In this document: one piece after another, positions 16,912-61,181 of the stretch
Layout: the number at the start of each line of letters is the position of its first letter
Position numbering within the stretch: position 1 is the first letter of the stretch
IMG/VR virus record: IMGVR_UViG_3300037466_003456
Location: 57,682-121,681 of that record
Reading direction: 5' to 3' (one strand)
DNA: 64,000 bases
From: a virus
Translations under genes and position numbers: made by a program
Notes under the pieces: generated by a model
Seen by the model: the letters and a program-made list of their open reading frames with translations, nothing else
Told to the model about the DNA's origin: nothing
The model's database searches: none

Positions 16912-18567
16912 ATGGCTTCTTTAAAAGAAGTAGAAGGTCAGCTGACCCCGATGAGGTTCGCAGAATCAATGTATATGTTGGAAGGTTCCCCGTTACGATT
17001 TGGACCAGGGCGGAATTATCTGAAAGCCATACATAATGCGGACATCGAAGAATTGCTGATGATGACAGGTCGTCAGGTAGAGAAATCCACCTCGATCTCT
17101 GTAAAAATAGCCAACAACATTCTATTAAGAAGTTTCAGCCGGAATCTTTACGTCGCACCCCTAAACGAACAGGTGAAAGTATTCTCTCGTGGTCGTCTGG
17201 ATAAATTGTTCCGATACTCACAAAAGGATTTAATTCGGAAACGGTACCAGAGTAATGACTTGGTAAATCAGGTATTCCATAAAGAATTTATGAATGGTAG
17301 TGAAATTTACCTTCGGAACTGTTTTGAAGAAGCCGACAATATTCGTGGACTATCTGTCAGTGACATCTTTATCGATGAAATTCAGGACATCCTAGTCGAT
17401 GCCCTACCCGTAATCTTAGAAACTCAAACACGCGCAAAAAAGAAGCGTAGAATCTATACGGGAACTCCCAAGTCGTTTAGTAACACGATACAACAACAGT
17501 GGGAGAAAAGTAGTCAAGCAGATTGGGTGATTCGTTGCTCCCACTGTGGGAAGCACCAAGTTATGGGGGTCGATTCGGTTACTGCTGCTTCATATGTATG
17601 CCGAAATCCTCGATGCCGTAAACCGATTGATGATATCGTTCGGGCCATGGGTCGCTGGGAACACCGTTTTCCAGACCGCCGGATGAAGGGTTTCCGTGTC
17701 ACGCAAATGATGGTTCCTGACATTAAGTCTGCGGATCTCCTGCAGAAGATTGAAACCTACCCTATCCTCCGTTTGAAAAATGAGGTTTTAGGAGAATCCT
17801 ATGAAAATGCGGATAAACCATTCACCCGTCAATTTATGATGGATATTACTGATCACGAATTCTCGATGATGAACGGAATCGTCAATACCCCATTCGCCAA
17901 CACCCCAACATTCTTGGGTATTGACTGGGGCGAAGGCGAAAAGAATGGGCAAGCTGGAACAGGTTACACTGTTATGACAGTCGGAGCCTATAATTCCGAA
18001 GGAAAGTTCCAAATCCTTTATGCCAAGCGATTTGAACGTGGCGATGAGTTAGATCCTGATTATCAGATTCGTAGTCTTCTTAATCTAGTAAAAGTCTTTA
18101 ACTGTCGTTTTGTCGTCGCTGACTATGGAGCAGGGGTTAAAGAGAACAAGAGAATTCAAAAACAGTTGGGAAAAATATTTGCTCAAATTCAATACGTCGG
18201 ACAGCAAAAAAAGAAACTTAACTATGATGCGGGTGAGTTTAAGTTTCTAATCGAGCGTTCCGACTGGATGACCGACTTTATTGATTTCGCCCACGATGGA
18301 AACCTTCGTTTCTTTGGGAAAAATCATGAAGGGGCATTGGATTGGATTTACGATAATTTTTGTGCCATTTATTCCGAATACCGTCCTGCTTCCAATGGGC
18401 TGTCTGAGAAACTATTTTACGGTCACGATGTCTCCCAGCCAGACGATGCATTTCACAGTGTTTTTTATGCGTGGTTTGCTTCCACGATGTATAAGAATGG
18501 AAACTCTAACCCGCAAAGGAATACAGGTCAAAAGAAATATTTTGCCTCTGTCAAAGCGGGATACTAG
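16912..18567 (+). CDS. terL: Terminase large subunit
   Basis: Walker A variant GRQVEKST, Walker B IFIDEIQD, YTGTPKS coupling motif, CxxC...CxxxxC zinc finger, RNase H-like LGIDWG and PDDAFH. Confidence 0.88.
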   Translation: MASLKEVEGQLTPMRFAESMYMLEGSPLRFGPGRNYLKAIHNADIEELLMMTGRQVEKSTSISVKIANNILLRSFSRNLYVAPLNEQVKVFSRGRLDKLFRYSQKDLIRKRYQSNDLVNQVFHKEFMNGSEIYLRNCFEEADNIRGLSVSDIFIDEIQDILVDALPVILETQTRAKKKRRIYTGTPKSFSNTIQQQWEKSSQADWVIRCSHCGKHQVMGVDSVTAASYVCRNPRCRKPIDDIVRAMGRWEHRFPDRRMKGFRVTQMMVPDIKSADLLQKIETYPILRLKNEVLGESYENADKPFTRQFMMDITDHEFSMMNGIVNTPFANTPTFLGIDWGEGEKNGQAGTGYTVMTVGAYNSEGKFQILYAKRFERGDELDPDYQIRSLLNLVKVFNCRFVVADYGAGVKENKRIQKQLGKIFAQIQYVGQQKKKLNYDAGEFKFLIERSDWMTDFIDFAHDGNLRFFGKNHEGALDWIYDNFCAIYSEYRPASNGLSEKLFYGHDVSQPDDAFHSVFYAWFASTMYKNGNSNPQRNTGQKKYFASVKAGY

Positions 18568-23096: not shown

Positions 23097-24986
23097 ATGA
23101 TTAAAATTTCGTCTTTTCTCGTCAATGACAGAGCAACAAGAGTATATGCCGATTATGTTGAAAAAGTCGCATTTCCAATAGGTGCTGACGCTGGTTTGAT
23201 TATGGGTTCGATTGCTGCTGGACTAACAATGAATCACTTCTCCAGAAAAGCAAAAGAGCAACAGCAACAACAAAACGCACAGCCATCTCCTAGCATTGAA
23301 AATGGTGCGTACACCCAAATTGAAAATATGTTACGTGATCTTAAAATTGTTTTCACACCGATTAGCGTCATTTATTCGGTGAATGGGCAAGTATTTGAAA
23401 TCATCAGTACCGAAGAAATGAATGCTTATATGAGGCAAGCGTTCATCCAAAAAGATGCTAATTATTTTCGTGACCTTCTCTTAAACAAAATTAATATGGA
23501 AACACAATTAGCCGAGCAAGCCTTTGCCCAGCGCCTTTTGACCGCAAACGGAGTGGGTGAACAGCAAAAGCAGGCAAACTTCCTGGAAAAACAAGAATAC
23601 CTTTTGAAACTTTCGGAAGAAGAAAGCGATGTTTTGGTGAAAAAAGCATCGCAAGGATTGGATGGAGTAAAAATCACCATCGACCCAACTTTTGATTCTC
23701 TCCGTCCCTTCGATCATTCCATCACTTTTTGCAACCCGAGGGAATTGGAAAAAGTGGCAGGCATTTTTGAATTATTCCAAGGCGATCAAGTTCAAGATGT
23801 CGGAGTTCATCAATTAAACAGTCAAGTGAACGTCGGATTCCTTCCTGACAGAGTGGTGTTCTTGTGGAATGGACAACTGATTGACCAGCTTACCCTCCTT
23901 CACATGAATGAAGAAGGTTTTGAAGCATTCCGGAACCGAGATAAACCATTTTTTATCGACTTATTTAAGCAATATACCAAAGAAGTAACGGAGGGATTAC
24001 AGGAATCTCCATCGGAACCAAATCATATTGAAGCGCCTGAAGAGGAAACCCATGAAGCTTCTGTATCCGACATTCTGGAACGGCTAGAAAAGACTGCTGA
24101 GGGCTTTGAGGACATCCTAGATGACTTTACTCCTGTTATTGAAAGAGATCATATAGAGCTATTTGAAGATCCTGATATCCATCCGATTGTGTACGACAAA
24201 GTATTGTCTCACAAGTACAGCAATTCATGGCACAGACACGAAATGGAATCAATTATGAAACAGATTGAGGAGGACTTCCACCTATCTAAAGGGATAGAGG
24301 AGAATCCACTTAATAAACTTTCCATCATTCATGCCATTTCGAATCCTGACCACGCCATGTACACATCACCATTTACATTTGAAAAGTACATGCGTGGTAT
24401 GAATTCCAAATCCGTTTTATTTGAGGATTTTCAAGGCAATCTCTCTTTCGAGGAAATCATGTTTGGTTTGGAATTAGCCAAACTCTATAACGGAGAGGAA
24501 GTGTTTTTTGAGTTCCACTCCAATGTTGCTGCTTATGTAGCAGAAGAAATCATGAATGATGGAGTTCGATTTGTTTCTAACGTGCTATACGACGAAACGA
24601 ATCCATCTGAAAATGATTTCTTCCGTACAGTCAATGACTTACTGATGAGGAAATGGAAAGAAGAAGATTCACTGGGATACAGGGATAACGAGGGCGTTCG
24701 CCATCGACATACATTAACGGAACAGATTGTTGAAATCGCCGATGACATCTTAAAACATTACAATTCTTTGTTGGATGTTGCGGATCCCTACAATTCTACC
24801 CGAAATATTTTGCGAAGTGAAAACTTACTGGATGTTGTTTCTTCACAAGACCAAACAAGTGTGAGAAACATGGTGGTTCAGAATGTTGTGGCTCATGTCA
24901 CCACTTCCTTGTTTTTAGATTATAAACGTGAAGAATATGAACACTCCATCTCATTGTTACAGAAAGAAGGTGTGCTAAATGGATGA
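23097..24986 (+). CDS. Hypothetical putative virion protein upstream of portal
   Basis: 629 aa; EKVAF followed by a hydrophobic Gly/Ala segment, LEKVAG, LERLEKTAE; overlaps the portal start. Confidence 0.7.
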   Translation: MIKISSFLVNDRATRVYADYVEKVAFPIGADAGLIMGSIAAGLTMNHFSRKAKEQQQQQNAQPSPSIENGAYTQIENMLRDLKIVFTPISVIYSVNGQVFEIISTEEMNAYMRQAFIQKDANYFRDLLLNKINMETQLAEQAFAQRLLTANGVGEQQKQANFLEKQEYLLKLSEEESDVLVKKASQGLDGVKITIDPTFDSLRPFDHSITFCNPRELEKVAGIFELFQGDQVQDVGVHQLNSQVNVGFLPDRVVFLWNGQLIDQLTLLHMNEEGFEAFRNRDKPFFIDLFKQYTKEVTEGLQESPSEPNHIEAPEEETHEASVSDILERLEKTAEGFEDILDDFTPVIERDHIELFEDPDIHPIVYDKVLSHKYSNSWHRHEMESIMKQIEEDFHLSKGIEENPLNKLSIIHAISNPDHAMYTSPFTFEKYMRGMNSKSVLFEDFQGNLSFEEIMFGLELAKLYNGEEVFFEFHSNVAAYVAEEIMNDGVRFVSNVLYDETNPSENDFFRTVNDLLMRKWKEEDSLGYRDNEGVRHRHTLTEQIVEIADDILKHYNSLLDVADPYNSTRNILRSENLLDVVSSQDQTSVRNMVVQNVVAHVTTSLFLDYKREEYEHSISLLQKEGVLNG

Positions 24987-27012
24987 AAACATGAAAGCCG
25001 ACATTTCCCGCATGGAAGAAAAGATGGCGAACTATCTTGATAAATTAACAGGTCATTCCGATGGAATGTTTAAAACGGCGGCTGCTACTGGGATGATGTA
25101 TAACTCCAGCTACAAACAATATCGTTCCAGCTTTTTAACCCTCGGAGATATGCAAATTCCTGATGATTATCGGGAGATTTTTAGATGGTGCCGATACTTT
25201 TTTAAGTTTGATAGTTTGGTTGGGGCGGCAGTTCGTTCACTAGCCACCTTCCCGATAACAGATTGGGTGTTAGATGATACGGAGAATTCCGACGATGAGG
25301 ATTCAGAGGATCAATCAGAGGATGAATCAGAAGAACCCTCTGAAACTTACAAATTTTACGAGAGTATCTTAAATGACATCAAGCTATACAGCCACATGAT
25401 TGAGGTTGGCTACGATTACTTCTTGTACGGTAACTGTGTCATATTTGCCGAGCCGGGAGTCAAGAATATCAAACGTCGTGACCCTGACACCGGACAAGTA
25501 TCCGAAAGAAAAGAAGTGGTTTGGAAATCGATTCAACGATTGGATGTTACCCGTCTTCGGATTGACCGAGACCCAAAAACAAATGAAAAACAATATTACT
25601 ATGACATTCCTTTGGAATTAAAGCGTGTCATTCAAACGCAGAAACCGAAGGAAAAATACGATAGAATACCAGAAATTTTCAAAAAGGCGGTTAAAGCAAA
25701 AGGATTGGTCAAACTAAAATCCGACTACATCTATCATTTGCAGATGCCTTCTGAAAGCGGAGATTCAGGATTATGGGCCACACCACCGGTGTTACATGCC
25801 ATGAAGCTTATCTTGTATTCGAACGTGTTGAGACAAGCGCAAGAAGCGATTGCCTATGAACATATCATCCCTAAGCGGATCTACTATTTCCAAGAAACGC
25901 AGGAGTATTCGCCAAACATGGACTTTGCTTCCATCGCTTCCGAGTTCGCCCTTGAATTAAAACGTCAGCTCGATGATCCAAACTACCAGGTCATTAGCCC
26001 GTTCCCAATCAATCAGCTCATGCATGGCGGACAGGGTAAGGCATTGATGCTCGTTCCTGAATTGGAACAGCTGCAAGAAACCATCTTAGCGGCGATGGGT
26101 ACTCCACGTGAATTCGTTTTTGGAGGAGTTTCCTATTCTGGCAGTACAACGAGTCTACGAATCTTGGAAAACCAATTTATCACGTACCGTACCAATTTAC
26201 TGGACTATATCAATGATTTCTTAATTAAGAGATTGGCAGAAATCCGAGGTGAATGGGAAACCATCGACGATGATAAAAAGCTCGTAAAAGTTCAGTTTGC
26301 CGAGCTCAAGATGCAAGATGATATCCAACAAAAGCAACTAATGTTGCAACTCAATGAAGCGGGTAAACTGCCGGATGAAGTGTTGTACGAAAAGGTATTG
26401 GGCCTCGATGCCAGCAAGACGATTAAGCAATTGCAGGCAGAACGCATCCGAAAACTAAAAGAGCAAGCAGAACTGCAAATTAACCAAATGGAAATTGAGC
26501 AGGAAATGCAAGATGAAGCGATGCAGAGGGGATTAATGACTCCACCTGTTCCTGTGAATGGTCCTGTTATTCCTGAACCTGCAGCAGGCGCATATGGTCA
26601 GGCAACCGAGGGAGACCCGATGATGGCTGAGGCTGGCGGTGATATGGCTGGCGATCCTACAGGAGGAGCTCAACCGACTTCGGACAGTAGTCAATCTTCT
26701 TCTGGTTCAAGTAGCGGAAGTAACTCATCATCAAAATCGGACAAGTCATCATCCGATAAAAAATCCGGTGAATCGGGTGGTAAGTCGGGACGTGAGGAAC
26801 GCGATGCCTTAAAGATGGCTCAGCAAATGGAACTAATGACTGAAGCACAAAAGGCGAATCTTATCCGCAAACTTCCTCAGAAGGAAGCGCAACGGATTCT
26901 CCTATACTACAACCAGTTAAAGGCAGAACACGGTTCATCCGATTCTGGAGAAACCGACATGAGACCATACCCTGAACAGCGCCCACCACGTAGAACGGTC
27001 GGTGGTGTGTAA
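24979..27012 (+). CDS. Phage portal protein
   Basis: REIFRWCRYFF...GAAVRSLATFP, AIAYEHIIPKRI, GGQGKALM, ILAAMGTPREFVFGG; low-complexity C-tail; located near terL. Confidence 0.75.
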   Translation: MDENMKADISRMEEKMANYLDKLTGHSDGMFKTAAATGMMYNSSYKQYRSSFLTLGDMQIPDDYREIFRWCRYFFKFDSLVGAAVRSLATFPITDWVLDDTENSDDEDSEDQSEDESEEPSETYKFYESILNDIKLYSHMIEVGYDYFLYGNCVIFAEPGVKNIKRRDPDTGQVSERKEVVWKSIQRLDVTRLRIDRDPKTNEKQYYYDIPLELKRVIQTQKPKEKYDRIPEIFKKAVKAKGLVKLKSDYIYHLQMPSESGDSGLWATPPVLHAMKLILYSNVLRQAQEAIAYEHIIPKRIYYFQETQEYSPNMDFASIASEFALELKRQLDDPNYQVISPFPINQLMHGGQGKALMLVPELEQLQETILAAMGTPREFVFGGVSYSGSTTSLRILENQFITYRTNLLDYINDFLIKRLAEIRGEWETIDDDKKLVKVQFAELKMQDDIQQKQLMLQLNEAGKLPDEVLYEKVLGLDASKTIKQLQAERIRKLKEQAELQINQMEIEQEMQDEAMQRGLMTPPVPVNGPVIPEPAAGAYGQATEGDPMMAEAGGDMAGDPTGGAQPTSDSSQSSSGSSSGSNSSSKSDKSSSDKKSGESGGKSGREERDALKMAQQMELMTEAQKANLIRKLPQKEAQRILLYYNQLKAEHGSSDSGETDMRPYPEQRPPRRTVGGV

Positions 27013-36970: not shown

Positions 36971-36983
36971 TGTCAAGACCCCT

Positions 36984-40037: not shown

Positions 40038-40550
40038 TTAAAACAAGTTTTTGTTGGTCGGGATGCTGTCAGGCATAAGTACTGCCTGCTTCGCTTCGTT
40101 TAACAAAAAATGAACATACGTATTAAAGGTTTCAACGAGTCTCCTTGCGTTTTTGGCGCTTTGCTGGACGTTACTCATCTTCTCCTCTAATTCTTCAATG
40201 CTCGTTTTTAATTTTTGTACCCTTGCGATATCTTCCTGGTAATCAGGTCGTGCCATTTGTAATTCCTTTTTATAGGCTTTTCTTTGTTTATCAGAACCTT
40301 CCCGAGGTGGATATTTCACCATCACCTGCATATCGAACTCTGATTCCAAAAGAGCCAAATTAGTTTCGAGATTCAGCTTCTCCGCATACAAAGGGCGAAG
40401 TTCCTCTCGGATTTCTATCACTGCATCAATTTCCTTTTGGATATATTTCAGCTGTTGATCAATTTCCATATACGTTGCGAAATAGGTCATCACTTCAACA
40501 GGAGATGCATCAGGATTGTTTTGCAAGTACTCAATAACTTTCCAGCTCAT
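40038..40550 (-). CDS. Coiled-coil protein, possibly UvsY-like recombination mediator
   Basis: 170 aa all-helical, next to the SSB-like gene; assignment is weak. Confidence 0.35.
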   Translation of the reverse strand: MSWKVIEYLQNNPDASPVEVMTYFATYMEIDQQLKYIQKEIDAVIEIREELRPLYAEKLNLETNLALLESEFDMQVMVKYPPREGSDKQRKAYKKELQMARPDYQEDIARVQKLKTSIEELEEKMSNVQQSAKNARRLVETFNTYVHFLLNEAKQAVLMPDSIPTNKNLF

Positions 40551-43672: not shown

Positions 43673-44359
43673 ATGTTATTCCCTATTATTAAAACAAATT
43701 CTGAGCCATTCGAAAAACAAGCGAGCATCCTTGGTTTATTGGCTGGTATGGGAATTGGAGAGCTGGGCATGCAAGCTGCTTCCAAGTTCGGTCAAAAGAG
43801 AGGAGCAAACCTGTTGCGAACGGGCATAGATTTAAGTCAGAAGGGAGAGAAGATGGCACCCTTGACTGAAACCCTTTCCCGGAATCTTCTCGGCAACAAG
43901 GCGATGTCTCCTTATGATGCTGGCTTGAAAATCGGTAACAAGATCACAGAAAAAAATATGGAACCTGAACGGGCTCAAAAGTTTATTGACCGTGTGGTGA
44001 AATGGAATGTAGACAAAAAGACACGATTGGAACAGGCAGGGGAGAAAGTAAAGGACCCTGTTCTTCATGCCATGGATGATTACCTACTTTTTAAAGACCT
44101 CAAACACCCGAAGTTCCAAAAAATGTTGAATGAGGGAAGTATTCCACAAGAGAAAAGCGGAGCAGGAGGGAAGATTGTCGGTAATGCTCTAACCGGTCTA
44201 GCAGCTCCGCAGAGTTGGGGAGATTTTCGTTTTGCTGCTCGCCCTCTCGTCCGTAAAGCAGAGAATACGCCTGCTGTTCAAAATGCACAGAACAAACTAT
44301 TCCCTGCTGGGACGATGCGAGAAAAAGGATACAACATGGTTAGGAATTATATTGATTAA
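43673..44359 (+). CDS. Isolated plus-strand KxA/glycine-zipper protein
   Basis: ORF track 43622..44359; ATG 43673 after AAGGAG; FEKQASILGLLAGMGIGELG. Confidence 0.65.
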   Translation: MLFPIIKTNSEPFEKQASILGLLAGMGIGELGMQAASKFGQKRGANLLRTGIDLSQKGEKMAPLTETLSRNLLGNKAMSPYDAGLKIGNKITEKNMEPERAQKFIDRVVKWNVDKKTRLEQAGEKVKDPVLHAMDDYLLFKDLKHPKFQKMLNEGSIPQEKSGAGGKIVGNALTGLAAPQSWGDFRFAARPLVRKAENTPAVQNAQNKLFPAGTMREKGYNMVRNYID

Positions 44360-45272
44360 CTGGGGGAATCGGTACTCCATTTCTGAAGAAGTATCCTAGC
44401 CGTTCAAATTTACCTCGAACGGCTAGAGCGCTTTTTCCCACCTTTTGAGCGATTGTGTTCAAACCATAACCCTGATTGTACATAGAAATAATTAATTGTT
44501 CCTGTTCTGGTGTCCATAGTCTTTTTTTAGTTTGCTTTGGATTCTTGGCACCCAAATCATACAATTTTCTCTTAATAGCTGCTTCCGACCGTTTTAACCG
44601 TTCGGCTATTTCGGGATAGGTATACTTCTGAGAATTGACCATGCCCAGTAATGTGTTGATATCTTCTTTTGACCATGCCACTTTTAATTTCTTTTCAAAG
44701 TTCAATTTATCTGCATCTCGTTTCACTTTCACCCATTCAGGCTCAGGACCTAATCGAAATGGTTCAAGACGTGAAAAGTTAATCGTTTGCTTGTTCTTTT
44801 CTGCCCACTTCCAAAACTCCTCATACCCGATGACCCAAACTTCCATTTCTTTTACAAATATCTTTTTATAGGCCGGCATGCCGTACTGAGTTACCCAATT
44901 TAATACAATGCAATAAGAAACATTAAAAGCATTTGCTAACTGATTGATAGTGATTCCGTCAAAGGAAAGCGTAGCATCGCCTAGTCCCATTTTTACGACT
45001 TTTTCTCTGACAGAATTAAAACTTCTACCAAGTTTTTTAGCTATGTCTTCGATGCTTATTACCCCTAATTTTTCTTCAACATATAATTCTTCTCGTTCTG
45101 ACCACTCTCGACCTTTGCGATCTTTGATATCGTCTAGCTTTAATCCTAATTTTCTTCTTTTTTGGTCAATTGAGTGGAATGGCCTTTTTAATTTTTTTGA
45201 TATATATTGCTCTCCTTGGTGCCAATTCTTGATTAAAAAATCTATCTCTTCTTGTGCCCATTTACGGTACAT
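44340..45272 (-). CDS. Multi-HTH (Myb/SANT-like W-x-x-E repeat) DNA-binding protein
   Basis: KWAQEE, EWSERE, AWSKED, LWTPEQ, each followed by IAxxLxRS-type helices. Confidence 0.65.
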   Translation of the reverse strand: MYRKWAQEEIDFLIKNWHQGEQYISKKLKRPFHSIDQKRRKLGLKLDDIKDRKGREWSEREELYVEEKLGVISIEDIAKKLGRSFNSVREKVVKMGLGDATLSFDGITINQLANAFNVSYCIVLNWVTQYGMPAYKKIFVKEMEVWVIGYEEFWKWAEKNKQTINFSRLEPFRLGPEPEWVKVKRDADKLNFEKKLKVAWSKEDINTLLGMVNSQKYTYPEIAERLKRSEAAIKRKLYDLGAKNPKQTKKRLWTPEQEQLIISMYNQGYGLNTIAQKVGKSALAVRGKFERLGYFFRNGVPIPPVNQYNS

Positions 45273-48259: not shown

Positions 48260-49492
48260 CTATTCTTGTAACATCATTTCCTCAATCAATCGTTGGTCCT
48301 CAATCGTAATAAATTGGGGCTTACCATTTGATTTATCTAACATAATCAGTCGAGGTGTATCGTCAATCGAACCGTCATTGATGAACAACTGCGCCACCAG
48401 CTCTTTTATATCCATTGGTTTCCATCTTTCTAACGACTTGTCACGAAATGGATTATGCGCATACCAAGGAGCATACAGTGTCATATTGATTTTATTCAGC
48501 TTCATAGCAAGGGGATCAGCGACACCTCCACCTGCAAAGAATGTGTAGTTCGAGTAAGGTAATAGTGCAGCGCCGCATCCAACCTCCTCCTCGTAAATCT
48601 CAATCTTTTTCAGTCTTTCAGCATTCTTACCGGATAAATCATCTTCGACTTTCTGTAGGTAAACTTTGAAATCTACCATTTCCAAAGAAACGTTCCTTTC
48701 TTCTTCCACATCTCTGGAATACCATTCAATCAAGAGTGGTGTCATATAATCATAAGGGTATCGGATCATGGAATCATAATCGAAATTTTTCAACCAATAG
48801 ATATTTACTTCCGATGGTATATCCGGATGCTTTGATGCAGCACCACCGAATCCCCATAAAATCCAGTCGGCAAAGTCATCAAGCGTACATCCATATCTAA
48901 TTCCATAATTCACGCAATCCCTTATACTAGCTTGAATAGTGCGTAAGATGAGTGGATCGGTACACCACATAATTTGTGGGATTGGGCCACTTTTCTCAAT
49001 GCCGCTTCGCATCACTCCCATCCAGTATTCCCAACGTCCCCAATGGAGCCATTCACTAGCAAGAACTGGTGCAAACAAATGGCCTGCCTTCTCATAAGTT
49101 TCCTCATGTTTTTCTAATGCGACGCTCCCCTTAATTAAAGAATTATAGAATACATGTCGTCTCGCCCAACCTCTAAATTGTTCATGTGTAAATCCTTCAA
49201 CCGATAATAAATGCCCATGTCTTTCCCATTTATCATTTCGTTCTCCCTTGGTACGACGTTCTTGAACATATTCACAGAAGTCTTCCCAATGACGGCTAAT
49301 AATGATATCTGCCATCGTAGTCAGGATAGGTTCGGGGATCCTATCTAAGTGCCACCGAAGAATATATTCGCTTTTAATCGTCTTGAACTTTTCAATGTCC
49401 TGGTGAATCATCATTAATGTAGTCTCTTTCTCTTGGATCTTCCTTAGTTCCTGTTCTTTTCGTTCCTTTTTCAATCTTGCTCCTTTTCCCAT
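48260..49492 (-). CDS. Degenerate N6-methyltransferase-like protein, paralogue B
   Basis: Shares long identical blocks with paralogue A (CVNYGIRYGCTLDDFA, EVGCG, LLPYSNYT, DPLAMKLNKI, LYAPW). Confidence 0.5.
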   Translation of the reverse strand: MGKGARLKKERKEQELRKIQEKETTLMMIHQDIEKFKTIKSEYILRWHLDRIPEPILTTMADIIISRHWEDFCEYVQERRTKGERNDKWERHGHLLSVEGFTHEQFRGWARRHVFYNSLIKGSVALEKHEETYEKAGHLFAPVLASEWLHWGRWEYWMGVMRSGIEKSGPIPQIMWCTDPLILRTIQASIRDCVNYGIRYGCTLDDFADWILWGFGGAASKHPDIPSEVNIYWLKNFDYDSMIRYPYDYMTPLLIEWYSRDVEEERNVSLEMVDFKVYLQKVEDDLSGKNAERLKKIEIYEEEVGCGAALLPYSNYTFFAGGGVADPLAMKLNKINMTLYAPWYAHNPFRDKSLERWKPMDIKELVAQLFINDGSIDDTPRLIMLDKSNGKPQFITIEDQRLIEEMMLQE

Positions 49493-49573
49493 CAATAAAC
49501 AGCTCCTTTTCATATTTTTATATATAAAAAAAGCGCAAGCACATGATAAGTGCTTACGCTTTTGTTTTAGTGT

Positions 49574-49885
49574 TTATAAGTGATTAAAAACCAGGTTCAT
49601 TAAACTTAATGCATCTGAATCGGAAGTATTCACTAAAAACTCAGGTATTGTTCGGATACCCATGACATATTGTTGCTCGATTGAACGAACAACATATTCA
49701 AACCAATAAAAAGAAACAGCTTCACTAAGCGGGCTTTGTTCAAATTCCCAACCTTTTAGTTCTGAACGATTGAATCCAATATCCCTTTTTATTTCCACAT
49801 AAAACGTTTGATTCCCAGTTAAATACCATCTTACTACTACATGACCGATTTTTTTTGTTTGCCCGTTGATTGATTGAGTCTCCAT
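49574..49885 (-). CDS. Hypothetical protein at the aimX position
   Basis: First ORF downstream of aimP and the long hairpin; AGGGG RBS. Confidence 0.55.
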   Translation of the reverse strand: METQSINGQTKKIGHVVVRWYLTGNQTFYVEIKRDIGFNRSELKGWEFEQSPLSEAVSFYWFEYVVRSIEQQYVMGIRTIPEFLVNTSDSDALSLMNLVFNHL

Positions 49886-49935: not shown

Positions 49936-49995
49936 GTTTTTACCAAAAGTTCTGTTTTTGCTTATTTGAGCAAAAACAGAATTTTTGGTAAAAAC
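49936..49995. repeat. 27-bp near-perfect inverted repeat downstream of aimP
   Basis: GTTTTTACCAAAAGTTCTGTTTTTGCT-tatttg-AGCAAAAACAGAATTTTTGGTAAAAAC (one mismatch). Confidence 0.85.
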
Positions 49996-50123
49996 AGCGA
50001 ATGACACCGCCAAAAAGAACGATGTCATTCAAAGAAAAATATAAAATTATAAATCTTACTTTTCTTCAACTTTCTTATAACAGAAAATTGCAAAATTATT
50101 ACTGTTTATTAAATCCCCTTTTT

Positions 50124-50303
50124 TTACCAACCACCTGGATCTCCATAAGTTGTCATTGTGGTATCTGCGCTTACCAAATTGATTGCAGAATCATTTTCCA
50201 AACTAGCTACTTCATTTTCAACTGCCTTCGGAGCGTTAAATAAAAGCAATCCAGCGATAATAATGACTGGGATAATTAAAAATAATTTTCTCATCTTTTT
50301 CAC
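50124..50303 (-). CDS. aimP: Arbitrium-type signalling pro-peptide (59 aa)
   Basis: Manual translation MKKMRKLFLIIPVIIIAGLLLFNAPKAVENEVASLENDSAINLVSADTTMTTYGDPGGW*; GGAGGTG RBS, signal peptide, DPGG-type C-terminus; directly after aimR; below the ORF-track size cutoff. Confidence 0.85.
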   Translation of the reverse strand: MKKMRKLFLIIPVIIIAGLLLFNAPKAVENEVASLENDSAINLVSADTTMTTYGDPGGW

Positions 50304-50339
50304 TATAGCTCACCTCCCCTAAAAATAATAGCGCTTTTT

Positions 50340-51482
50340 TTACAAAATCCCCAAATATTTCTTTGGCAAATGGGAGTAAAAAATATTTCCAGAATCCTCA
50401 AATTTTTGAAGAGATTTTTTTATAATTTCTTCCTTGTTTTGAGCCAGTCCTAGATAAAACGTTTGAATGTCGCTTAATTCATTGTTTGATTCGTTCAACT
50501 CATTTAAAATATCCACCGCTTCATCGTGCTTATTTCGTTTGATTTTTAAATAAGCAATTTCGGCAGGGTGAATATCCAGCTCATCTAAAGAATCTAATTC
50601 TATTCCATGATGGATTTTTAAAAAAGCCAGTGTATATTCAGTGATTTTCCGCTTTCGAGTCATTCCTAAAGAATCATGGTTATCCAAAAACGAAACAGCT
50701 TTTTCTAAAAACCTTTTTGATGTTTCGTAATCTTCGAATAAGTAAGATTCTCCCATTTTAAAAAGTGCTGTGGCATATGGCACTTTAATGATTGGTTCGT
50801 TTTCGAAAATATCAAAAATTTCATTACACAACTGTCTGGATTCCTGGATGTTTCCTCGCTGTAACGAAATGACACACGTCGCTTCCTTAAGCCTGATTTG
50901 CAACGATTCCTTAATGTATTTGTTGGATATTTTCTTTATTTCTTTGTCCAAATTTTTAAGATGGAGGGCGACTAAAACATAATTACCGGTTTGGTATAAA
51001 GACTGTATCGACATTAGTTCTAGTAGAATTTTCATTTCTAATGTTTTTACAGTTTTCATCTTATCACTAAGTGCATTCAAGTAATATTGTGTGTCAACCG
51101 GTTCTGTGAATCTTTTATGAATCAAATCAAATATATAAGCCCATTCTCTATTTTCAGGTGTAGCTGACTCTTTTTCAGCATCAATGATCACTTTTAATAA
51201 ATCAAATCTACCCAATTGATAGGCCAATTCTAATGCTTCTCTTCGATTTTCGGGCTTTGCTTGATTTAAATAACTAAAGAATAGCTCAACTTTTTTATTG
51301 ACCGAATAATTCCGATTGAGTTGGATCAACGTTTTAACAAAAAAAGAACAGCTCATTTCTCTTTTTAATTTAAATACTTCCGAAACACCGCTTGGGCTAA
51401 TCCCCCAAATTTTAGCTAATTCTTTTTGTTTGATGCCTATAGAGGCAAGATCGTTACGAAGTTTGGACAATAGTACCTCCAT
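50340..51482 (-). CDS. aimR: AimR-family arbitrium receptor (HTH + TPR)
   Basis: N-terminal HTH; ALELAYQLGRF, NREWAYIFDLIHKR, EMKILLEL...TGNY, GESYLFEDYE, FYLGL...FEDSGNIFYSHLP parallel the SPbeta AimR; 380 aa. Confidence 0.88.
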   Translation of the reverse strand: MEVLLSKLRNDLASIGIKQKELAKIWGISPSGVSEVFKLKREMSCSFFVKTLIQLNRNYSVNKKVELFFSYLNQAKPENRREALELAYQLGRFDLLKVIIDAEKESATPENREWAYIFDLIHKRFTEPVDTQYYLNALSDKMKTVKTLEMKILLELMSIQSLYQTGNYVLVALHLKNLDKEIKKISNKYIKESLQIRLKEATCVISLQRGNIQESRQLCNEIFDIFENEPIIKVPYATALFKMGESYLFEDYETSKRFLEKAVSFLDNHDSLGMTRKRKITEYTLAFLKIHHGIELDSLDELDIHPAEIAYLKIKRNKHDEAVDILNELNESNNELSDIQTFYLGLAQNKEEIIKKSLQKFEDSGNIFYSHLPKKYLGIL

Positions 51483-51588
51483 AGTACCTCCATGATCCCC
51501 CTCCTACATAAATATCGAAACTTCCCCCCAATTTATCAAACATTTTAACTTTACTACCAAAACGGTAACCAAAATGGTAGGTATGGGT

Positions 51589-52083
51589 TTAAAATTTGCC
51601 GCCTTTTTCCAGCGACTTCTTAATAATACTATTTGCATCAATTCCAGCGTGTTTTAAATTAAGGAGGAATAGTTCTCGAGCTCTCTCTCTTTTATACCCG
51701 TAATTTTTCTTGGCTTTCCAAAACCTCGGATCTTTGATTCCAAACTCATTTGTTTCTTTCTCCCATGAAATGATGTCTATCTCGACAAGATTTTGCAACT
51801 CATTCGACGCTTTGTGCGCCTGAACCCCACAGGTCTCAAAATCCCTTAATAATGGGATTACACACGTATTTTTACCGAAGTTATAACTTAAACCGATTAT
51901 GAAAGTCAGAATCGCCCGTTGGCGTTTCGTAAAATCATATTTCATTATTTCAGAATGAATATATAACTCTCTCAAAAAAAAAGTCTTATCAGTGGAGGTG
52001 TGTTCGATTAATGCATCGACTAAATCGGAATAAACTTGAGATGTGTTTGCATAGTCCTCTTTTATATTGCTGTACCAAGGCAA
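51589..52083 (-). CDS. Phage replication protein O-like winged-helix protein, paralogue 1
   Basis: DFTKRQRAILTFIIGLSYNFGK...IP...DFETCG...ELQNLVEIDIISW. Confidence 0.6.
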   Translation of the reverse strand: MPWYSNIKEDYANTSQVYSDLVDALIEHTSTDKTFFLRELYIHSEIMKYDFTKRQRAILTFIIGLSYNFGKNTCVIPLLRDFETCGVQAHKASNELQNLVEIDIISWEKETNEFGIKDPRFWKAKKNYGYKRERARELFLLNLKHAGIDANSIIKKSLEKGGKF

Positions 52084-52150
52084 TACATCCCCTCCAAACT
52101 TTGGCTAGTTATTTCAAGTTCACATTTTATAAACTAAAAAATAAAAAAAA

Positions 52151-52630
52151 TCATTTTTTCTTATTCAGTTCCTGTAAATACTCTAAATTCTCTACGAACA
52201 GTTCATAAGCCCTGTTTTCCGAATAATTATCGTGGTAAGGAGCTTTCCAAAAAACAATGTCATTAATTGAAAAAATGTTTCTGTCTGCTTCTCTTATCCA
52301 GGTAATGACACCCATCTTTTCTAACTTTCTGAGTTCCGCGGCGACCAATGTCTTGCTAATTCCTGCCAGTTGAAAATCCATCAATTTTGGTATGACGCAG
52401 CTATCTTTCCCATACGTAAAGCAAAACATGCCAATCATTTGAATGATTTTCAACTGTCTTTTCGTTAAATCTCTTCGTATCGTTTCCACACCAACCATAA
52501 GCTCTTTCATCGTTATTTCTTTTGAACGATTAAGACAGATATTAATAAAGGAATCGTAGAAACCTGATTCATACCTTTGCTTTGTGTTTTCAGAAATAGA
52601 GGGCATTATTGCACTCGGCCTAATTGACAT
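52151..52630 (-). CDS. Phage replication protein O-like winged-helix protein, paralogue 2
   Basis: DLTKRQLKIIQMIGMFCFTYGK...IPKLMDFQLAG...ELRKLEKMGVITW. Confidence 0.6.
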   Translation of the reverse strand: MSIRPSAIMPSISENTKQRYESGFYDSFINICLNRSKEITMKELMVGVETIRRDLTKRQLKIIQMIGMFCFTYGKDSCVIPKLMDFQLAGISKTLVAAELRKLEKMGVITWIREADRNIFSINDIVFWKAPYHDNYSENRAYELFVENLEYLQELNKKK

Positions 52631-52731
52631 AAATGCTTCCTCCGCTTTTCTTTATTATAGAATATTACTAAAACTCACTTGATAAATTATAATCAGAACG
52701 GGAGTAAATTACTATAAGACGATTTTCCTAT

Positions 52732-52953
52732 TCATGCCACTTCAAAATATGTAAGAATTTCTTCTGGTAGTTCGTAATTGACCGACACTCGTTTCAGTGC
52801 ATCCTCACCCGATATAGCAGCAGTCGCACCAACAATGACACCAATGTCCTGAAGCAATTTTAAATTAGTTCCAGTTTCATCTAAAAAAATAAAGGCTTCA
52901 TTCACAAAATCACTCTTCACAGCTATAATAAATGTCTTAAACATAGGCGTCAC
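52732..52953 (-). CDS. Hypothetical protein
   Basis: 73-aa ORF with GAGG RBS. Confidence 0.5.
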   Translation of the reverse strand: MTPMFKTFIIAVKSDFVNEAFIFLDETGTNLKLLQDIGVIVGATAAISGEDALKRVSVNYELPEEILTYFEVA

Positions 52954-53109
52954 CTCGTAATAATTGTTTGAATTTTCCTTCTAGGATCTATACTTAAATT
53001 ATACTGGAATCTATGAAAAGAGTAATAAGACCTTAGTCCTACTTTTAGGGAATTTTGTCGACAATGTTTTGTCGAATTTTCGATTTTTATAAAAAAATAA
53101 AAAATTAAA

Positions 53110-53139
53110 AAGGGGATGCTCTTGAAAGAGCATCCCCTT
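53110..53139 (-). terminator. Intrinsic terminator
   Basis: AAGGGGATGCTCT-tgaa-AGAGCATCCCCTT, 13-bp stem with T-tract on the minus strand. Confidence 0.75.
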
Positions 53140-53142
53140 ATA

Positions 53143-53295
53143 TCACGCTTGCAATGTTTTTCTGATCAATTCCATAACTCTATTTATGCCAAGCCTTTTC
53201 GAGTCTTCGTAGGTTAATTCTACTCCAGCCTCTTTTAGCTTTGATTCTAAAGATGTCATACTAACCATTACTATGTTTCCTTTCTGTTGGCTCAT
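53143..53295 (-). CDS. Small hypothetical protein (50 aa)
   Basis: Manual translation MSQQKGNIVMVSMTSLESKLKEAG...KTLQA*; sits directly before the terminator. Confidence 0.45.
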   Translation of the reverse strand: MSQQKGNIVMVSMTSLESKLKEAGVELTYEDSKRLGINRVMELIRKTLQA

Positions 53296-53442
53296 CTCCA
53301 ATCATCCCCCTAGATGATAAGTTCGCTATACTTACTTAGTTACCATTTTATATAAAAAATACAACTATATATATAGGTTTAAAGTCTTAATTGTTGCACA
53401 TGGGCAAAAAGTGAATTACAATATAGGAACGTGTGTTCTTTT

Positions 53443-53652
53443 TTATTCCTCTGATTTCCTCTGGAATTCTTGCCAATCTAGGTTTCTTTTTTTTAGTCTT
53501 TGCCACGTCTGTTCCTCCCTTTTTCGTTCTTCAATGATTCTTTTCTCCACTGTTGGTCTGATGAGTATCAGCAATTGTTTCTTTGTTTCTTTGGATGGCT
53601 GGCCGAAGTTTCCGATTTTATGAATTCCCATCTTGCTTTCCCTCCAACTCAT
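53443..53652 (-). CDS. Small basic hypothetical protein
   Basis: ORF track; start uncertain. Confidence 0.45.
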   Translation of the reverse strand: MSWRESKMGIHKIGNFGQPSKETKKQLLILIRPTVEKRIIEERKREEQTWQRLKKRNLDWQEFQRKSEE

Positions 53653-53845
53653 TCACAAACATTTGTCCGAGGATATGAAGCAGTTGCCGTTCATCGGCAA
53701 CCACTTCTTCATCCACACCATTTTCACTTTCGTCAATCTTCTGCTGAATAAATTTTGTAGGAGCTGATTCTTTCCCAAAAGTTTTTTCACACAATCCCAG
53801 CCAGTTTCCTAATGTGCTAGGGATTCCTAACGATAACATTTTCAT
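53618..53845 (-). CDS. Small hypothetical protein
   Basis: 75 aa, in a run of short co-oriented ORFs. Confidence 0.55.
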   Translation of the reverse strand: MKMLSLGIPSTLGNWLGLCEKTFGKESAPTKFIQQKIDESENGVDEEVVADERQLLHILGQMFVNELEGKQDGNS

Positions 53846-54042
53846 TTTTTTAACACTCCAACTCTAATTCTTCTGCACGATTTAAAATAGCAATCATAAC
53901 GTCCTGATCAAAAAGACAACGATCTAGCCTTTTTTTTGCATCCTGCTCGGTTAGGTCATAACGCTCGATAAGCATGTTTAATAATTGAGTATACCCCTCC
54001 ATTGCCTTTCCTCCTTAGTGGACAATTTGTTCGTATAGCGAC

Positions 54043-54240
54043 TTAGCTATCTGCTAATTTTCTCAACGCTTCGTGATTCTTTTGAATCGTTTGTTCAAGA
54101 AATTTATCTCTAATTCTTTGGTACTTTTCAGCCTGTTCAATAAGCCAGTCAATATCTTCTGTTAGAGTTGTAAGTTCCCAACCTTCACCTTTTCGAAATT
54201 CGTGATTAGCTTTTATTTCCTCTAATCGACTTTTCATCAT
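54043..54240 (-). CDS. Small hypothetical protein
   Basis: 65 aa, GGAGG RBS; DIDWLIEQAE motif typical of Bacillus phage small ORFs. Confidence 0.55.
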   Translation of the reverse strand: MMKSRLEEIKANHEFRKGEGWELTTLTEDIDWLIEQAEKYQRIRDKFLEQTIQKNHEALRKLADS

Positions 54241-54285
54241 CTTCCTCCTATATGTCGCAATTTTTGTCTATAGGACTCTTTTCTG

Positions 54286-54570
54286 TCAAAATGGCAGATT
54301 GCCATCAAGATGTTTCCGTTCTATTTCCCTTACCAGCTCGGTAATGTCCTGATCCCCATCAGCAATCACTTCTTCCAAGACAGCACGATAGGACATTTCC
54401 TTTTGAATCTGCTTCCAGAACTCATACGCCACTTGCTCTGGCTTTCTTCCCCTCAGTGGAAAAGAACCACGCTGCAGGATACGACTCGCTGCTACATAAT
54501 GGATTTGAATATTAACGTTCACGATAATACCTCCCCCAGAAACCATTCGGATTGTGCGGACTGTATTCAT
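54286..54570 (-). CDS. Conserved Bacillus-phage hypothetical protein
   Basis: QRGSFPLRGRKPEQVAYEFWKQI...DITELV...NLPF; start uncertain. Confidence 0.55.
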   Translation of the reverse strand: MNTVRTIRMVSGGGIIVNVNIQIHYVAASRILQRGSFPLRGRKPEQVAYEFWKQIQKEMSYRAVLEEVIADGDQDITELVREIERKHLDGNLPF

Positions 54571-54832
54571 GCTCGTGAATCCTTTTCTCGTCGCCTTCTT
54601 TGAATTCTTCTAGCCACTTCTCACCCAGTTCAAACAAAGGCATCGGGTTTCCATCGTCGATTCGGTACTCGAGATCACAGACTCCCAAAGTTCCTGTCAA
54701 ATACAATTGCACAATATAGCGCCCAAAGAGTTGTTTTTGCACATAACAAACAACTTCTCCTTTGACGCGTTGATAGTAGTTAAATTTCTTTGAGTAAAAC
54801 CATCCTGGTACTTCTGTGAATCCCCAAATCAT
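54512..54832 (-). CDS. Hypothetical protein
   Basis: 106-aa ORF overlapping its neighbours. Confidence 0.55.
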   Translation of the reverse strand: MIWGFTEVPGWFYSKKFNYYQRVKGEVVCYVQKQLFGRYIVQLYLTGTLGVCDLEYRIDDGNPMPLFELGEKWLEEFKEGDEKRIHEHEYSPHNPNGFWGRYYRER

Positions 54833-58282: not shown

Positions 58283-59182
58283 TCACATCACCCCTCCACA
58301 CTTCTTCGATTCAAACCATGCCATTTTATTCTTTAAGTACTTAATAGACTCTGATATTTTCTTCTCTTTCGAAATCTTCTGCAGCCACGTTTGCCCATCA
58401 AACGAATACAGCTCTGGGCACGCTTCAATGATATCAACGTCCAGTGAACCGAGTAGATGGAACTTCTTATCCGGATGACGATCAATGATGTTTCGGATAA
58501 TCTCAATACGCTTTGCCTTGGTGTATCCTTTCACTTTAGAAAAAGCCGTACCACCAATCGCAATATAATCTGCGTCCTGTGCATAATAATCCAATACATC
58601 CCACTCCTTATTTTCATAAATGGTGTCCTTTAATAGAGTAGTAGCCTGGTAAACAGGAATAACCGGAACATCCAAGTGTCGCATAATCCGGTAGGCCAGT
58701 AATGATTGTTCGTTGTCTCCAATGCGGTCAAAGGCGAAGCAACGATTGTATCTCCTTTTATTCCACCACAAGAAATTCATGTATTGATGGAATAAGGGGA
58801 ATTGGCTCTTATCCTCTTTATAGAAATCCTCTTCAAACTGATTGAACCACCAATGACAGAAGATAGCCATATCTACATCGTCATGGATATCAAAAGTCTT
58901 TCCGTCTTCTTCCACCATTTCAGTGTAGGTTTCAATGATATCTTCCAACCCATAATCTTCATCGTTGCGAAAAGTGTAGGCTCCGCAATCCACAATAATG
59001 CTTTCAGGCTCATAACCAATACGGTCTTTTAAATCCAACTGGAGGTCCTTATCTTCTGTTCGGTTCCGCCACATTGCGAAGGATGTTAAGATATTCGGCG
59101 GCTTAGCGGTGCGCAGACACAGGATTTCATCTTCACGGTAACTAGTAGCGAAATACATTTTTCCATTGTCGAATACGCTCAT
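58283..59182 (-). CDS. dpdA: DpdA/tRNA-guanine-transglycosylase-like protein (putative DNA deazaguanine insertion)
   Basis: IIVDCGAYTF (DSG-like), FAFDRIGD, VIPVYQ, YIAIGG, KFHLLG, YSFDGQTW follow the TGT/DpdA motif order with the conserved Asp positions present. Confidence 0.7.
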   Translation of the reverse strand: MSVFDNGKMYFATSYREDEILCLRTAKPPNILTSFAMWRNRTEDKDLQLDLKDRIGYEPESIIVDCGAYTFRNDEDYGLEDIIETYTEMVEEDGKTFDIHDDVDMAIFCHWWFNQFEEDFYKEDKSQFPLFHQYMNFLWWNKRRYNRCFAFDRIGDNEQSLLAYRIMRHLDVPVIPVYQATTLLKDTIYENKEWDVLDYYAQDADYIAIGGTAFSKVKGYTKAKRIEIIRNIIDRHPDKKFHLLGSLDVDIIEACPELYSFDGQTWLQKISKEKKISESIKYLKNKMAWFESKKCGGVM

Positions 59183-59598
59183 TTTGTAATCCACTTTACG
59201 ACTAAGGCCTTCAGTTTCTCAGGATCATAGTATTTAAAAGGGTGTACCTCATCCCGTAGAGTTTCATCATGAAACGGATCAGAGACCATTTGACCGTATG
59301 ACTCAAACGTAAACTTCGTATCACTCGTTTCCGCGTTATATTCTGCGATTTCATATAAAAAGGGAACCAACTGACTTTCTAATTTATAATCCCGTTTGTT
59401 TTGAGCCTTCGCGTCTCCGATGGCACACTCCCACTGGGATGCTAAATCTTCTAAACTATGAGGAGATAAATTATATTTAGGCACCACTTCATTAATAAAA
59501 TCGCAGAAACCTGTATCTAATTCGCATTGATTAGAAATATCATATAAGGTGTTTACCAGCTGAACCAACAATATCATTTGGTCTTCCGTTACTTTCAT
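59179..59598 (-). CDS. Hypothetical protein
   Basis: ORF track 59179..59664; start moved to ATG 59598 behind AGGAG. Confidence 0.55.
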   Translation of the reverse strand: MKVTEDQMILLVQLVNTLYDISNQCELDTGFCDFINEVVPKYNLSPHSLEDLASQWECAIGDAKAQNKRDYKLESQLVPFLYEIAEYNAETSDTKFTFESYGQMVSDPFHDETLRDEVHPFKYYDPEKLKALVVKWITK

Positions 59599-60361: not shown

Positions 60362-60952
60362 TTAGTGAGACTTAACAAACAAGTTTTTTTCCATTTTAAA
60401 GATGTCAATGAAATCATGCTTATCGGATTGAATGAAAACGGAATCCCCCGATTCGTTTTCATTCAGATAAATAGTTTCTGCAGCACCAATTAGGTTCGTG
60501 CAATCCACCATCCATCTGCCAAAGCTTACTTGTCTCGGAAGTGCTTCAGTGTGATAGCCTAACGAAGCTAAATGAAGAAAAAGCGGTTGTAAGGCAGCTT
60601 TCCGTCTTTCGAGTTTCTTTCGGTTCTCGAGTTCATATGCTTTCAGCTTCCATGACTTATGGGCTTTCACCATTTTCGCCAATTCCTTCTTGGATATGCG
60701 GTTTGGAAGGTCCATTCCCAATAGTTCCGCCATCGCCACGAAGTCCTCTTTGGATGTGACAGCTGAATGCAGTTGGTCCACCAGGTCCACAATGTCCTGT
60801 GCCCCTCTGAACCAATTAATCTCGAATATTTGGAAATGAGCGAGTTGCCCCAACTCATATAAGCTGTGAAAGGAACGGTGCAACCAGTCGTCCTTTTGAC
60901 CTACTTCCTCAAAGGCGAGGTCGATGGCACGAACTAAGTCTCGTACTCTCAT
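60362..60952 (-). CDS. Hypothetical protein
   Basis: ORF track 60362..60985; start at ATG 60952 after GGGAGG. Confidence 0.6.
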   Translation of the reverse strand: MRVRDLVRAIDLAFEEVGQKDDWLHRSFHSLYELGQLAHFQIFEINWFRGAQDIVDLVDQLHSAVTSKEDFVAMAELLGMDLPNRISKKELAKMVKAHKSWKLKAYELENRKKLERRKAALQPLFLHLASLGYHTEALPRQVSFGRWMVDCTNLIGAAETIYLNENESGDSVFIQSDKHDFIDIFKMEKNLFVKSH

Positions 60953-61181
60953 ATCCTCCCACCTACTTTCTTCATAAATCCGCATAAACTAGCAGTCTTC
61001 CTCTTTCTATTTTACCCTATCAGACCTTGTAAATAAAGGGCAGAGAGCGTTTTTTCACTCACAAAACTTTTTTGCGTTCAAAGAAAAAAGACCCCAGTGC
61101 TCCTCTGGTCCAAAGAGGTAGGTCTGGGGTCTTTCCCTGTCTTCAACAAAAAATTTGATTAACATGCACAGGACGATTATA

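Follow-up and report, generated by a model that had tools for sequence, protein, structure and literature searches.

The window analysed here, 64,000 nucleotides (nt) spanning positions 57,682 to 121,681 of the IMG/VR virus record IMGVR_UViG_3300037466_003456 and forming the last 64 kb of that 121,681-bp record (estimated completeness ~80%), carries aimR and aimP, the receptor and peptide genes of an arbitrium communication system, in the genome of a phage that encodes its own 2241-amino-acid (aa) RNA polymerase (RNAP). Sequence comparisons confirmed the locus as a genuine arbitrium receptor together with its predicted peptide. The best overall explanation, which we consider probable, is that a working arbitrium module was captured by this phage lineage and wired to a gene of its backbone. 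The record showed a high coding density and no host flank, and contained a large terminase, a portal, baseplate and tail genes, helicases, a primase, a holin, and a sigma factor alongside the polymerase. The carrier belongs to a largely uncultured group of soil myoviruses of Bacillaceae with genomes of about 120-180 kb.

The 380-aa receptor comprises an N-terminal helix-turn-helix (HTH) followed by tetratricopeptide repeats. It matched the NCBIfam equivalog NF038310 ('lysogeny_AimR', AimR family lysis-lysogeny pheromone receptor) with 356 bits (cut-off 70), the match covering all 365 model positions, and it aligned almost end to end with solved AimR/YopK structures in the PDB (E about 1e-10), in addition to the Pfam and PHROG matches given in Table 1; an HTH_3 match at residues 7-34 was weak. 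The same strand carries the aimP open reading frame (ORF) 36 nt beyond the end of aimR; it opens with GTG, 7 nt after GGAGGTGA, and its translated C-terminus reads ...TTMTTYGDPGGW. Its predicted product has a lysine-rich, basic N-terminus that passes into a hydrophobic, signal-like stretch. Both parts of the preliminary description at this locus, namely a clear AimR and an unannotated 59-aa secreted pro-peptide behind it, thus stand.

The nearest relatives of this AimR (61-85% identical) came exclusively from metagenome and Logan assemblies, and five related loci (L036, L037, L038, L039, and L027) were used for comparison. ORFs of 47-61 aa were located downstream of four related AimR genes and had a common signal sequence (MKKL.KL.PVLLIAGLL.F), and the tails of the AimP-like ORFs were ADPGGW in L036 and L027, and SDPGGW in L037-L039. 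Since related aimR genes are also followed by signal-bearing xDPGGW ORFs, aimP is not a chance ORF. DPGGW was present across the clade, with variation mainly at the residue that precedes it, and the peptide tail varied alongside the receptor (GDPGGW, ADPGGW, and SDPGGW across AimRs that are 61-85% identical). Published AimP tails from the Bacillus cereus group include ...MMVDPGGGGW (RBClin15; PMC11526630) and ...MADPGGSVG (B83; PMC6669507), such that tails with DPGG, whether or not W comes last, are an established arbitrium style. Most simply, the mature signal would be GDPGGW or a slightly longer C-terminal peptide. A predicted complex of AimR with AimP residues 24-59 received a median score of 0.24 (mark 0.32).

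A family of 12 tandem paralogous ORFs (107-160 aa) was also observed 3-8 kb before the start of the window, at record positions 49975-54649 on the minus strand; the C-termini of 11 share a motif such as IN.PVGKVW, and the remaining one ends in CPYGGGIW. AimP was ruled out as a member of this upstream family (...PVGKVW), which has a different tail and no signal peptide.

The second element of the combination, the polymerase, is a single chain in which Rpb2 domains are followed by Rpb1 domains, with the motif NADFDGD at residue 1474, and its ORF sits two genes downstream of the portal. Approximately 40 full-length fused relatives were recovered from metagenomes (41-90% identity), and identity was 65-66% to proteins on Priestia megaterium contigs and 26% to the polymerases of Salmonella phage Arash and Vibrio phage D69. 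Searches with the RNAP returned only host rpoBC from the plasmid collection, and only the ordinary rpoB of two metagenome-assembled genomes from a scan of genome contigs. Phages of the AR9/PBS1 or phiKZ type were absent from the top 30 phage records of the RNAP search, and PHROG matches of the phiKZ/AR9 kind were weak and partial (E 1e-30 to 2e-05) in comparison to those of two unnamed full-length PHROG families (1e-112 to 5e-115). While these results bear out the earlier claim of a phage-encoded multisubunit-type RNAP, they do so for a different kind of phage than was proposed. The carrier had been termed jumbo-type and likened to phiKZ and AR9, whose genomes exceed 200 kb; the record is 121,681 bp at ~80% completeness and its close relatives are 145-180 kb, and the closest cultured kin of the 2241-aa chain is that of Arash. 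With relatives of this size and an Arash-type enzyme in a single chain, the phage is therefore neither jumbo-type nor phiKZ/AR9-like. In purified virions of Arash, the beta and beta' proteins, the sigma factor, and a helicase are abundant (PMC10585845). By analogy with Arash only, the polymerase described here is probably virion-borne or injected.

Independent assemblies connected the arbitrium genes to the polymerase. Several soil and rhizosphere samples yielded a total of 18 contigs with an identical AimR protein in a constant neighborhood, and AimR and the polymerase occurred together on an 84.7-kb contig from the Joint Genome Institute (JGI) and on an 82-kb Logan contig. The latter, from one sequencing run, stops at window position 63175, where two short variant contigs start. 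Contigs aligned to the window exposed neither a joint that removes the cassette nor informative ends. Because independent assemblies join AimR and the polymerase on one contig, a chimera is very unlikely, and the co-occurrence of the two in a single element, with the contiguity on which it depends, is upheld.

The 180,101-bp contig of a P. megaterium isolate (NUKD01000006.1; L030/L031) represents a related, cassette-free phage, with an RNAP, terminase, and portal that are 65%, 73%, and 67% identical, respectively. The flanks of the cassette were colinear with this contig, specifically the 103-aa gene and the 417/425-aa paralogs on one side and a 207-aa gene (60362-60985) on the other. Given that the flanks are syntenic with a cassette-free relative, the cassette is best described as an accessory insertion in a variable early region and not as a separate prophage, so that the nested prophage allowed for in the preliminary description is not borne out. 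Directly upstream of aimR are two DnaD/RepO-like genes, which have the same arrangement in L036 and travel with the cassette. The GC content of the cassette region was 32-36%, versus 40% for the record, which fits a foreign origin. A low-GC island was noted at window positions 50000-54000, containing aimP, aimR, both DnaD-like genes, and some small ORFs, and may show how far the acquired segment reaches. The P. megaterium locus had no match in the plasmid collection, a scan of viral contigs with AimR gave no match, and the AimR family was found in none of 12 distant fused-RNAP IMG/VR records, most of which are fragments.

We next consider where the cassette came from and whether it has been maintained. 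A maximum-likelihood tree built from 45 AimRs paired the window sequence with that of L036 (support 100/99) and placed the pair inside three successive branches of AimRs that adjoin large serine recombinases in ordinary lysogeny modules; on the opposite strand, these temperate modules also hold HTH genes of repressor-like and cro-like kinds. All of these sequences, the pair and the serine-recombinase-linked branches alike, fell within the AimRs of the B. cereus group. In its simplest reading, this phylogeny, which had been suggested as a check, points to transfer from a temperate Bacillaceae element to the RNA-polymerase phage.

L036, which comes from a different study, aligned with the window in the same gene order for 5.9 kb, at a nucleotide identity of 86%. 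Protein identities between the two were 85% for AimR, 86% for the 103-aa protein, 92% for the 417-aa protein, and 89% for the 425-aa protein, such that cassette and backbone proteins were similarly diverged. AimP was 59% identical overall, with the signal sequence and tail kept. The ratio of nonsynonymous to synonymous substitution rates (dN/dS) of AimR was 0.20 at a dS of 0.36. Based on the similar divergence and this ratio, the module has been inherited and is under purifying selection in this lineage. These data also bear on whether the cassette is a functionless passenger, an assembly artefact, or a nested element. Such an account could draw on the low-GC island and on the lack of the cassette in the P. 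megaterium relative and the 12 distant fused-RNAP records, but independent assemblies and samples show the same context, the flanking genes are syntenic in relatives, the reading frames are intact at a dN/dS of 0.20, and the cassette has been retained over ~14% nucleotide divergence with its regulatory element included. It is thus largely refuted, and we give it hardly any credence.

The region behind aimP was conserved to a similar degree. The 238 bp between aimP and the next gene were as well conserved with L036 as the surrounding coding DNA, and the fold of the leader RNA had an energy of -57.7 kcal/mol (z -10.8 versus shuffled controls). A terminator hairpin follows aimP and is kept in L036, L038, and L027, with G-U wobble changes in L038. 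Beyond it is an inverted repeat, the core of which (TTCTGTTTTT-N12-AAAAACAGAA at 49950..49981) sits inside a palindrome with 27-nt arms (49936-49995), and which has a single occurrence in the 121.7-kb record. Both terminator and repeat are common to the temperate kin L038, L037, and L027. Across AimR systems that are 61-100% identical, the repeat arms were invariant while the spacer was variable, as were the terminator loops, and the HTH segments of AimR were nearly identical among the systems that share these arms. From this pattern of conservation, the inverted repeat is a candidate AimR operator and antitermination site. In known systems, peptide-free (apo-) AimR promotes aimX expression by anti-termination (Kabel et al., bioRxiv 10.1101/2025.11.23.689978). 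The half-site AAAAACAGAA was also present in the leader hairpin of the cassette-free relative, possibly as a low-complexity coincidence. Another candidate operator, AACAG-N18-CTGTT, was ruled out, as it is not conserved in L036.

A further element, the promoter-like motif TGTTATAAG (TGTTAYAAG), lies between aimP and its terminator, within a stretch of ~70 nt that is absent from the temperate kin and present only in the RNAP-phage lineage. Eight copies were located in the window, all on the minus strand (6721, 7865, 14280, 34660, 48265, 50074, 60295, and 62254), where ~1 was expected, and nine elsewhere, also on the minus strand, for 17 in the record. N4-GTG usually follows the motif, most copies of which lie ~40 nt ahead of a start codon and behind a terminator, and no clear -35 element was recognized; three copies were also present in the P. 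megaterium relative. It probably represents a phage-specific promoter class for minus-strand (non-structural) genes. Upstream of aimR, a sigma-A-like promoter was matched by consensus only.

The position that aimX holds elsewhere appears, from the gene order, to have been taken by a 103-aa gene of the backbone of the carrier phage. In the cassette-free relative, this gene sits behind its own TGTTATAAG motif and leader hairpin. The protein belongs to a small family of ~100-aa proteins (18 representatives), and its AlphaFold2 model (predicted local distance difference test 88.8) has four strands plus helices. A resemblance to PC4/PUR-like folds was weak and is not claimed, the best VIA-align Z of 7.3 being in the range of noise. 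Downstream, the order is the 103-aa gene, a terminator, the two methylase-like paralogs, and, farther on, the sigma factor, all on the minus strand. The paralogs had no Pfam or PHROG match; the N6-adenine-methylase-like fold comes from an ESM Atlas feature score of 0.94 and TM values of 0.52/0.75 to N6_Mtase clusters, and VGCG and NPF motifs are conserved across their homologs. For the 417-aa protein, a scan of viral contigs was empty, and an alignment search led to four unrelated phages without AimR and without this RNAP.

Taken together, these features are consistent with a working sensor-and-output module of aimR, aimP, terminator, and repeat, which the RNAP-phage lineage would have captured from temperate Bacillaceae elements and placed in its early minus-strand region, immediately upstream of the conserved 103-aa backbone gene. 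By analogy with known arbitrium systems, AimR would be made and AimP secreted early in infection. Peptide-free AimR, bound to the inverted repeat beside the terminator, would let transcription continue past it into the 103-aa gene, and perhaps as far as the methylase-like paralogs. As the processed peptide (GDPGGW or slightly longer) accumulates and is re-imported, AimR would be released and the output turned off. The identity of the genes, their conservation, purifying selection on aimR, the temperate origin, the conserved terminator and repeat, and contiguity with the RNAP are observed, and AimR binding to the repeat, antitermination, and the 103-aa gene as output are the steps that we infer from them.

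Our leading guess is that the decision under control is between productive lysis and a quiescent, non-integrated carrier state. RNAP relatives are annotated in assemblies of P. megaterium isolates from different submissions, at least four and probably five in number, on contigs of 174.5, 175.2, 179.8, and 180.1 kb, with the fifth on a 27-kb contig; the phage collection gave no match to these relatives above 30% identity. Because the contig sizes are uniform and equal to the expected genome length, they suggest separate replicons that are not integrated and are maintained in culture. We rate a carrier or episomal state under peptide control as a real possibility, though somewhat short of even, and arbitrium control of a step within the lytic program seems less likely. 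The sole recombinase found was a 214-aa tyrosine recombinase (record 36427-37071, minus strand), Xer-like and consisting of the catalytic domain only, odd company for a large RNA-polymerase phage. Homologs that are 52-60% identical occur in phi105, phIS3501, Athena, and streptococcal prophages. The protein could serve multimer resolution; integration is not indicated by it.

Several observations weigh against a captured module that governs quiescence. Neither a serine recombinase, ParB, AAA_31 ParA, nor an S24 repressor was found in the 121.7-kb record, which is itself only ~80% complete. The homologs of the Xer-like recombinase, which occur in many temperate siphophages of Firmicutes, adjoin the late regulator ArpU, apart from the lysogeny module and main integrase. 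An opposite-strand aimC and a divergent cro-like aimL, present in L037-L039 and L027, were not found beside the cassette, and the only XRE-type HTH gene in the record lies on the aimR strand 3.3 kb upstream, which is not the aimC position. The portal protein was found in 0 of 401 Bacillales species genomes searched. Between the flanking homologs on the P. megaterium contig there was no AimR, no AimP, and no DnaD-like gene, and it is this same relative that supplies the hint of carriage. On the output side, the 103-aa protein had no Pfam or PHROG match and no usable ESM Atlas feature match, its model retrieved nothing from the PDB by Foldseek at E <= 0.001, and the invariant repeat arms would fit a protein operator and an RNA hairpin alike. 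Finally, Arash, the nearest relative in culture, is described as a lytic phage, its authors found no lysogeny genes, and its RNAP is in the virions (PMC10585845). A temperate or plasmid-like state was said in the preliminary description to be implied by the combination of genes; with only the Xer-like protein in place of the genes listed above, such a state is not shown. The proposed look for integrase, partition genes, and host flanks gave a divided answer, with the recombinase and the discrete 175-180 kb isolate contigs on the positive side, and no partition genes and no flank on the other.

Much of this evidence could instead be taken to mean that the phage is strictly lytic and uses arbitrium for some other density-dependent choice, such as the adjustment of an early host-takeover or anti-restriction function carried by the 103-aa gene and the methylase-like paralogs, or the timing of lysis once most hosts are infected. 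The lack of lysogeny genes in the record, the lytic lifestyle of the closest cultured relative, and the 0 of 401 portal result would all be expected, as would an output consisting of an early backbone gene and then methylase-like genes, rather than an antirepressor. Set against this, arbitrium has been shown in the literature to control only lysis versus lysogeny, or induction, discrete contigs show the relatives persisting in isolate assemblies, at least four and probably five of them, and a recombinase of temperate-phage type is present. We judge a strictly lytic phage unlikely. The broader proposal, that arbitrium has been domesticated here, with antitermination rewired to an early gene and peptide quorum control extended to a decision never linked to arbitrium (entry into a carrier or dormant state, or a switch in the lytic program), and perhaps eavesdropping or jamming as well, is put forward tentatively and is, to our minds, rather doubtful in its entirety.

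The peptide tails allow yet another reading, in which the system serves cross-talk with resident temperate phages, either by listening to their xDPGGW signals or by a look-alike peptide that drives competitors to lysogeny. The ADPGGW of L036 is the same as the last six residues of the temperate L027, despite diverged receptors, and DPGGW is common to the whole clade, with differences mainly at the preceding residue. However, the mature peptide may extend beyond the hexamer, before which the residues differ, GDPGGW was in no temperate element sampled, and aimR and the output site are also retained. As both receptor and output site have been kept, self-signaling is favored, and cross-talk appears highly improbable.

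Table 1. Features of the window and the evidence for each (positions in the window; strand +, -, or. for either)
Feature	Position	Strand	Evidence
Large terminase	16912..18567	+	phrog_675 E 1.2e-53; Arash the top cultured match, 27.8%
Portal protein	24979..27012	+	BLASTP against Arash portal gp204: E 7e-44, 25% identity, 501 alignment columns
Single-chain beta-beta' RNA polymerase, 2241 aa	27347..34072	+	Pfam Rpb2_6 at 4.8e-71, then Rpb1_1 to Rpb1_5
Sigma-70-family phage factor	45272..45862	-	phrog_351 E 2.3e-15; TIGR02937 44.7 bits (cut-off 42.9)
Two paralogous genes, N6-adenine-methylase-like fold, 425 and 417 aa	46914-48191, 48260-49513	-	Homolog in cassette-free relative (L031)
Terminator-like hairpin after 103-aa gene	49529..49563	-	14-bp stem, then T run
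103-aa backbone gene in aimX slot	49574..49885	-	Homologs in L036 (86%) and cassette-free L031 (31%)
Inverted repeat core AATTCTGTTTTT-N12-AAAAACAGAATT	~49948-49983	.	12-bp arms
aimP terminator hairpin GAATGACATCG...CGGTGTCATTC, then GCTGTTTTT	49998..50031	-	Terminator scan
Promoter-like motif TGTTATAAG-N4-TTG	50074..50082	-	42 nt after aimP stop
aimP, predicted 59-aa secreted pro-peptide ending GDPGGW	50124..50303	-	ORF and strong Shine-Dalgarno
aimR, arbitrium receptor, 380 aa	50340..51482	-	Pfam PF22871 E 8.8e-50; PHROG 1728 E 6e-113
Two DnaD/RepO-N-terminal-like genes, 164 and 159 aa	51589..52630	-	PF04492 E 1.4e-12, 1.6e-08; phrog_16826
XRE-type HTH protein, only one in record, 115 aa	54829..55176	-	PF01381 25.2 bits; weak regulator/excisionase PHROG matches

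Other genes of the carrier phage were noted in passing. A 303-aa protein (window 58283-59194, minus strand) matched the PHROG for queuine tRNA-ribosyltransferase (E 4e-18), has a homolog in the P. megaterium relative, and may be a DpdA-like enzyme for 7-deazaguanine modification of phage DNA. A 248-aa protein (window 61182-61928, minus strand) contains a papain-family Peptidase_C1 domain, according to a precomputed Pfam match to the identical protein on other contigs, which is unusual in a phage early region. Two proteins, of 310 aa (window 44340-45272, minus strand) and 409 aa (record 39265-40494, minus strand), are composed of several HTH modules and match PHROG 323 ('transcriptional regulator, D5-like'); the gene for the former comes directly after the sigma-factor gene. 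Against the phage collection, no match was retrieved by megablast with window positions 44-56 kb or by tblastn with an 819-aa ORF.

Our literature search found no paper on arbitrium in a phage with its own multisubunit-type RNAP, in agreement with the earlier remark that no description was known. In the literature found, the only links of arbitrium are to certain conjugative elements and to the lysis-lysogeny decision in conventional temperate phages, with an antirepressor, an antitoxin, or an RNA as the known output. What is new here is that the cassette has a temperate origin and is maintained under selection, that the terminator and repeat came with it, and that a backbone gene has apparently replaced aimX. 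A sensor and its putative read-through site are under selection in a very different virus, one that probably starts transcription with its own polymerase and in which no repressor or integrase module was seen. If the system works, large RNAP-encoding phages of spore-formers would have a quorum-controlled quiescent state, which would change their classification and use, or, alternatively, arbitrium would be able to govern decisions inside the lytic cycle. The P. megaterium isolate contigs suggest where a host might be sought.

With respect to known phages, the carrier resembles phiKZ and AR9/PBS1 in encoding a multisubunit-type RNAP, but their beta and beta' are split into several pieces and their genomes exceed 200 kb, whereas here there is one ORF in a smaller genome. 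The likeness to Arash is more extensive: both phages have the order portal, small gene, RNAP, with homologous portals (E 7e-44), large terminases (28%), and RNA polymerases (26%), and in both there is a sigma factor of the phage's own and a helicase that adjoins the RNAP. They differ in that the beta and beta' of Arash are two genes, and in that Arash has a Gram-negative host, is described as lytic, and has no communication system, whereas the phage described here carries arbitrium and a single 2241-aa chain.

Among arbitrium systems, that of SPbeta and phi3T shares the same logic and receptor fold, with AimR/YopK structures matching along the whole length, but the identity is only ~24% and the peptide is xDPGGW here and xxxxGA/GG there. 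The polymerase of SPbeta, YonO, is a short single-subunit enzyme. No Pfam or PHROG match among the neighboring genes pointed to an sroDEF or yopMNOPQR context, and no search aimed at the SPbeta context was made. Of arbitrium systems, ~75% have the aimX/aimC/aimL extension and ~4% the SPbeta context, while the rest have neither (bioRxiv 10.1101/2025.11.23.689978), and the present system is a member of this last class. The extended systems of the B. cereus group (Waukesha92, BMBtp14, B83, and RBClin15) have AimRs of the same family, with up to 46% identity, while uncultured temperate kin reach 61-68%. They differ from the present one, in which there is no aimX-like small ORF, no opposite-strand aimC repressor, and no aimL, the output slot holds the 103-aa gene of the carrier's backbone, the interval from aimP to the terminator has gained a promoter motif of phage type, and the carrier is a large RNAP-encoding myovirus without a recognized lysogeny module. 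In both, nevertheless, aimP comes immediately after aimR in the same orientation and encodes a signal peptide and a DPGG-type tail with W as its last residue, and beyond aimP a terminator is succeeded by a conserved site.

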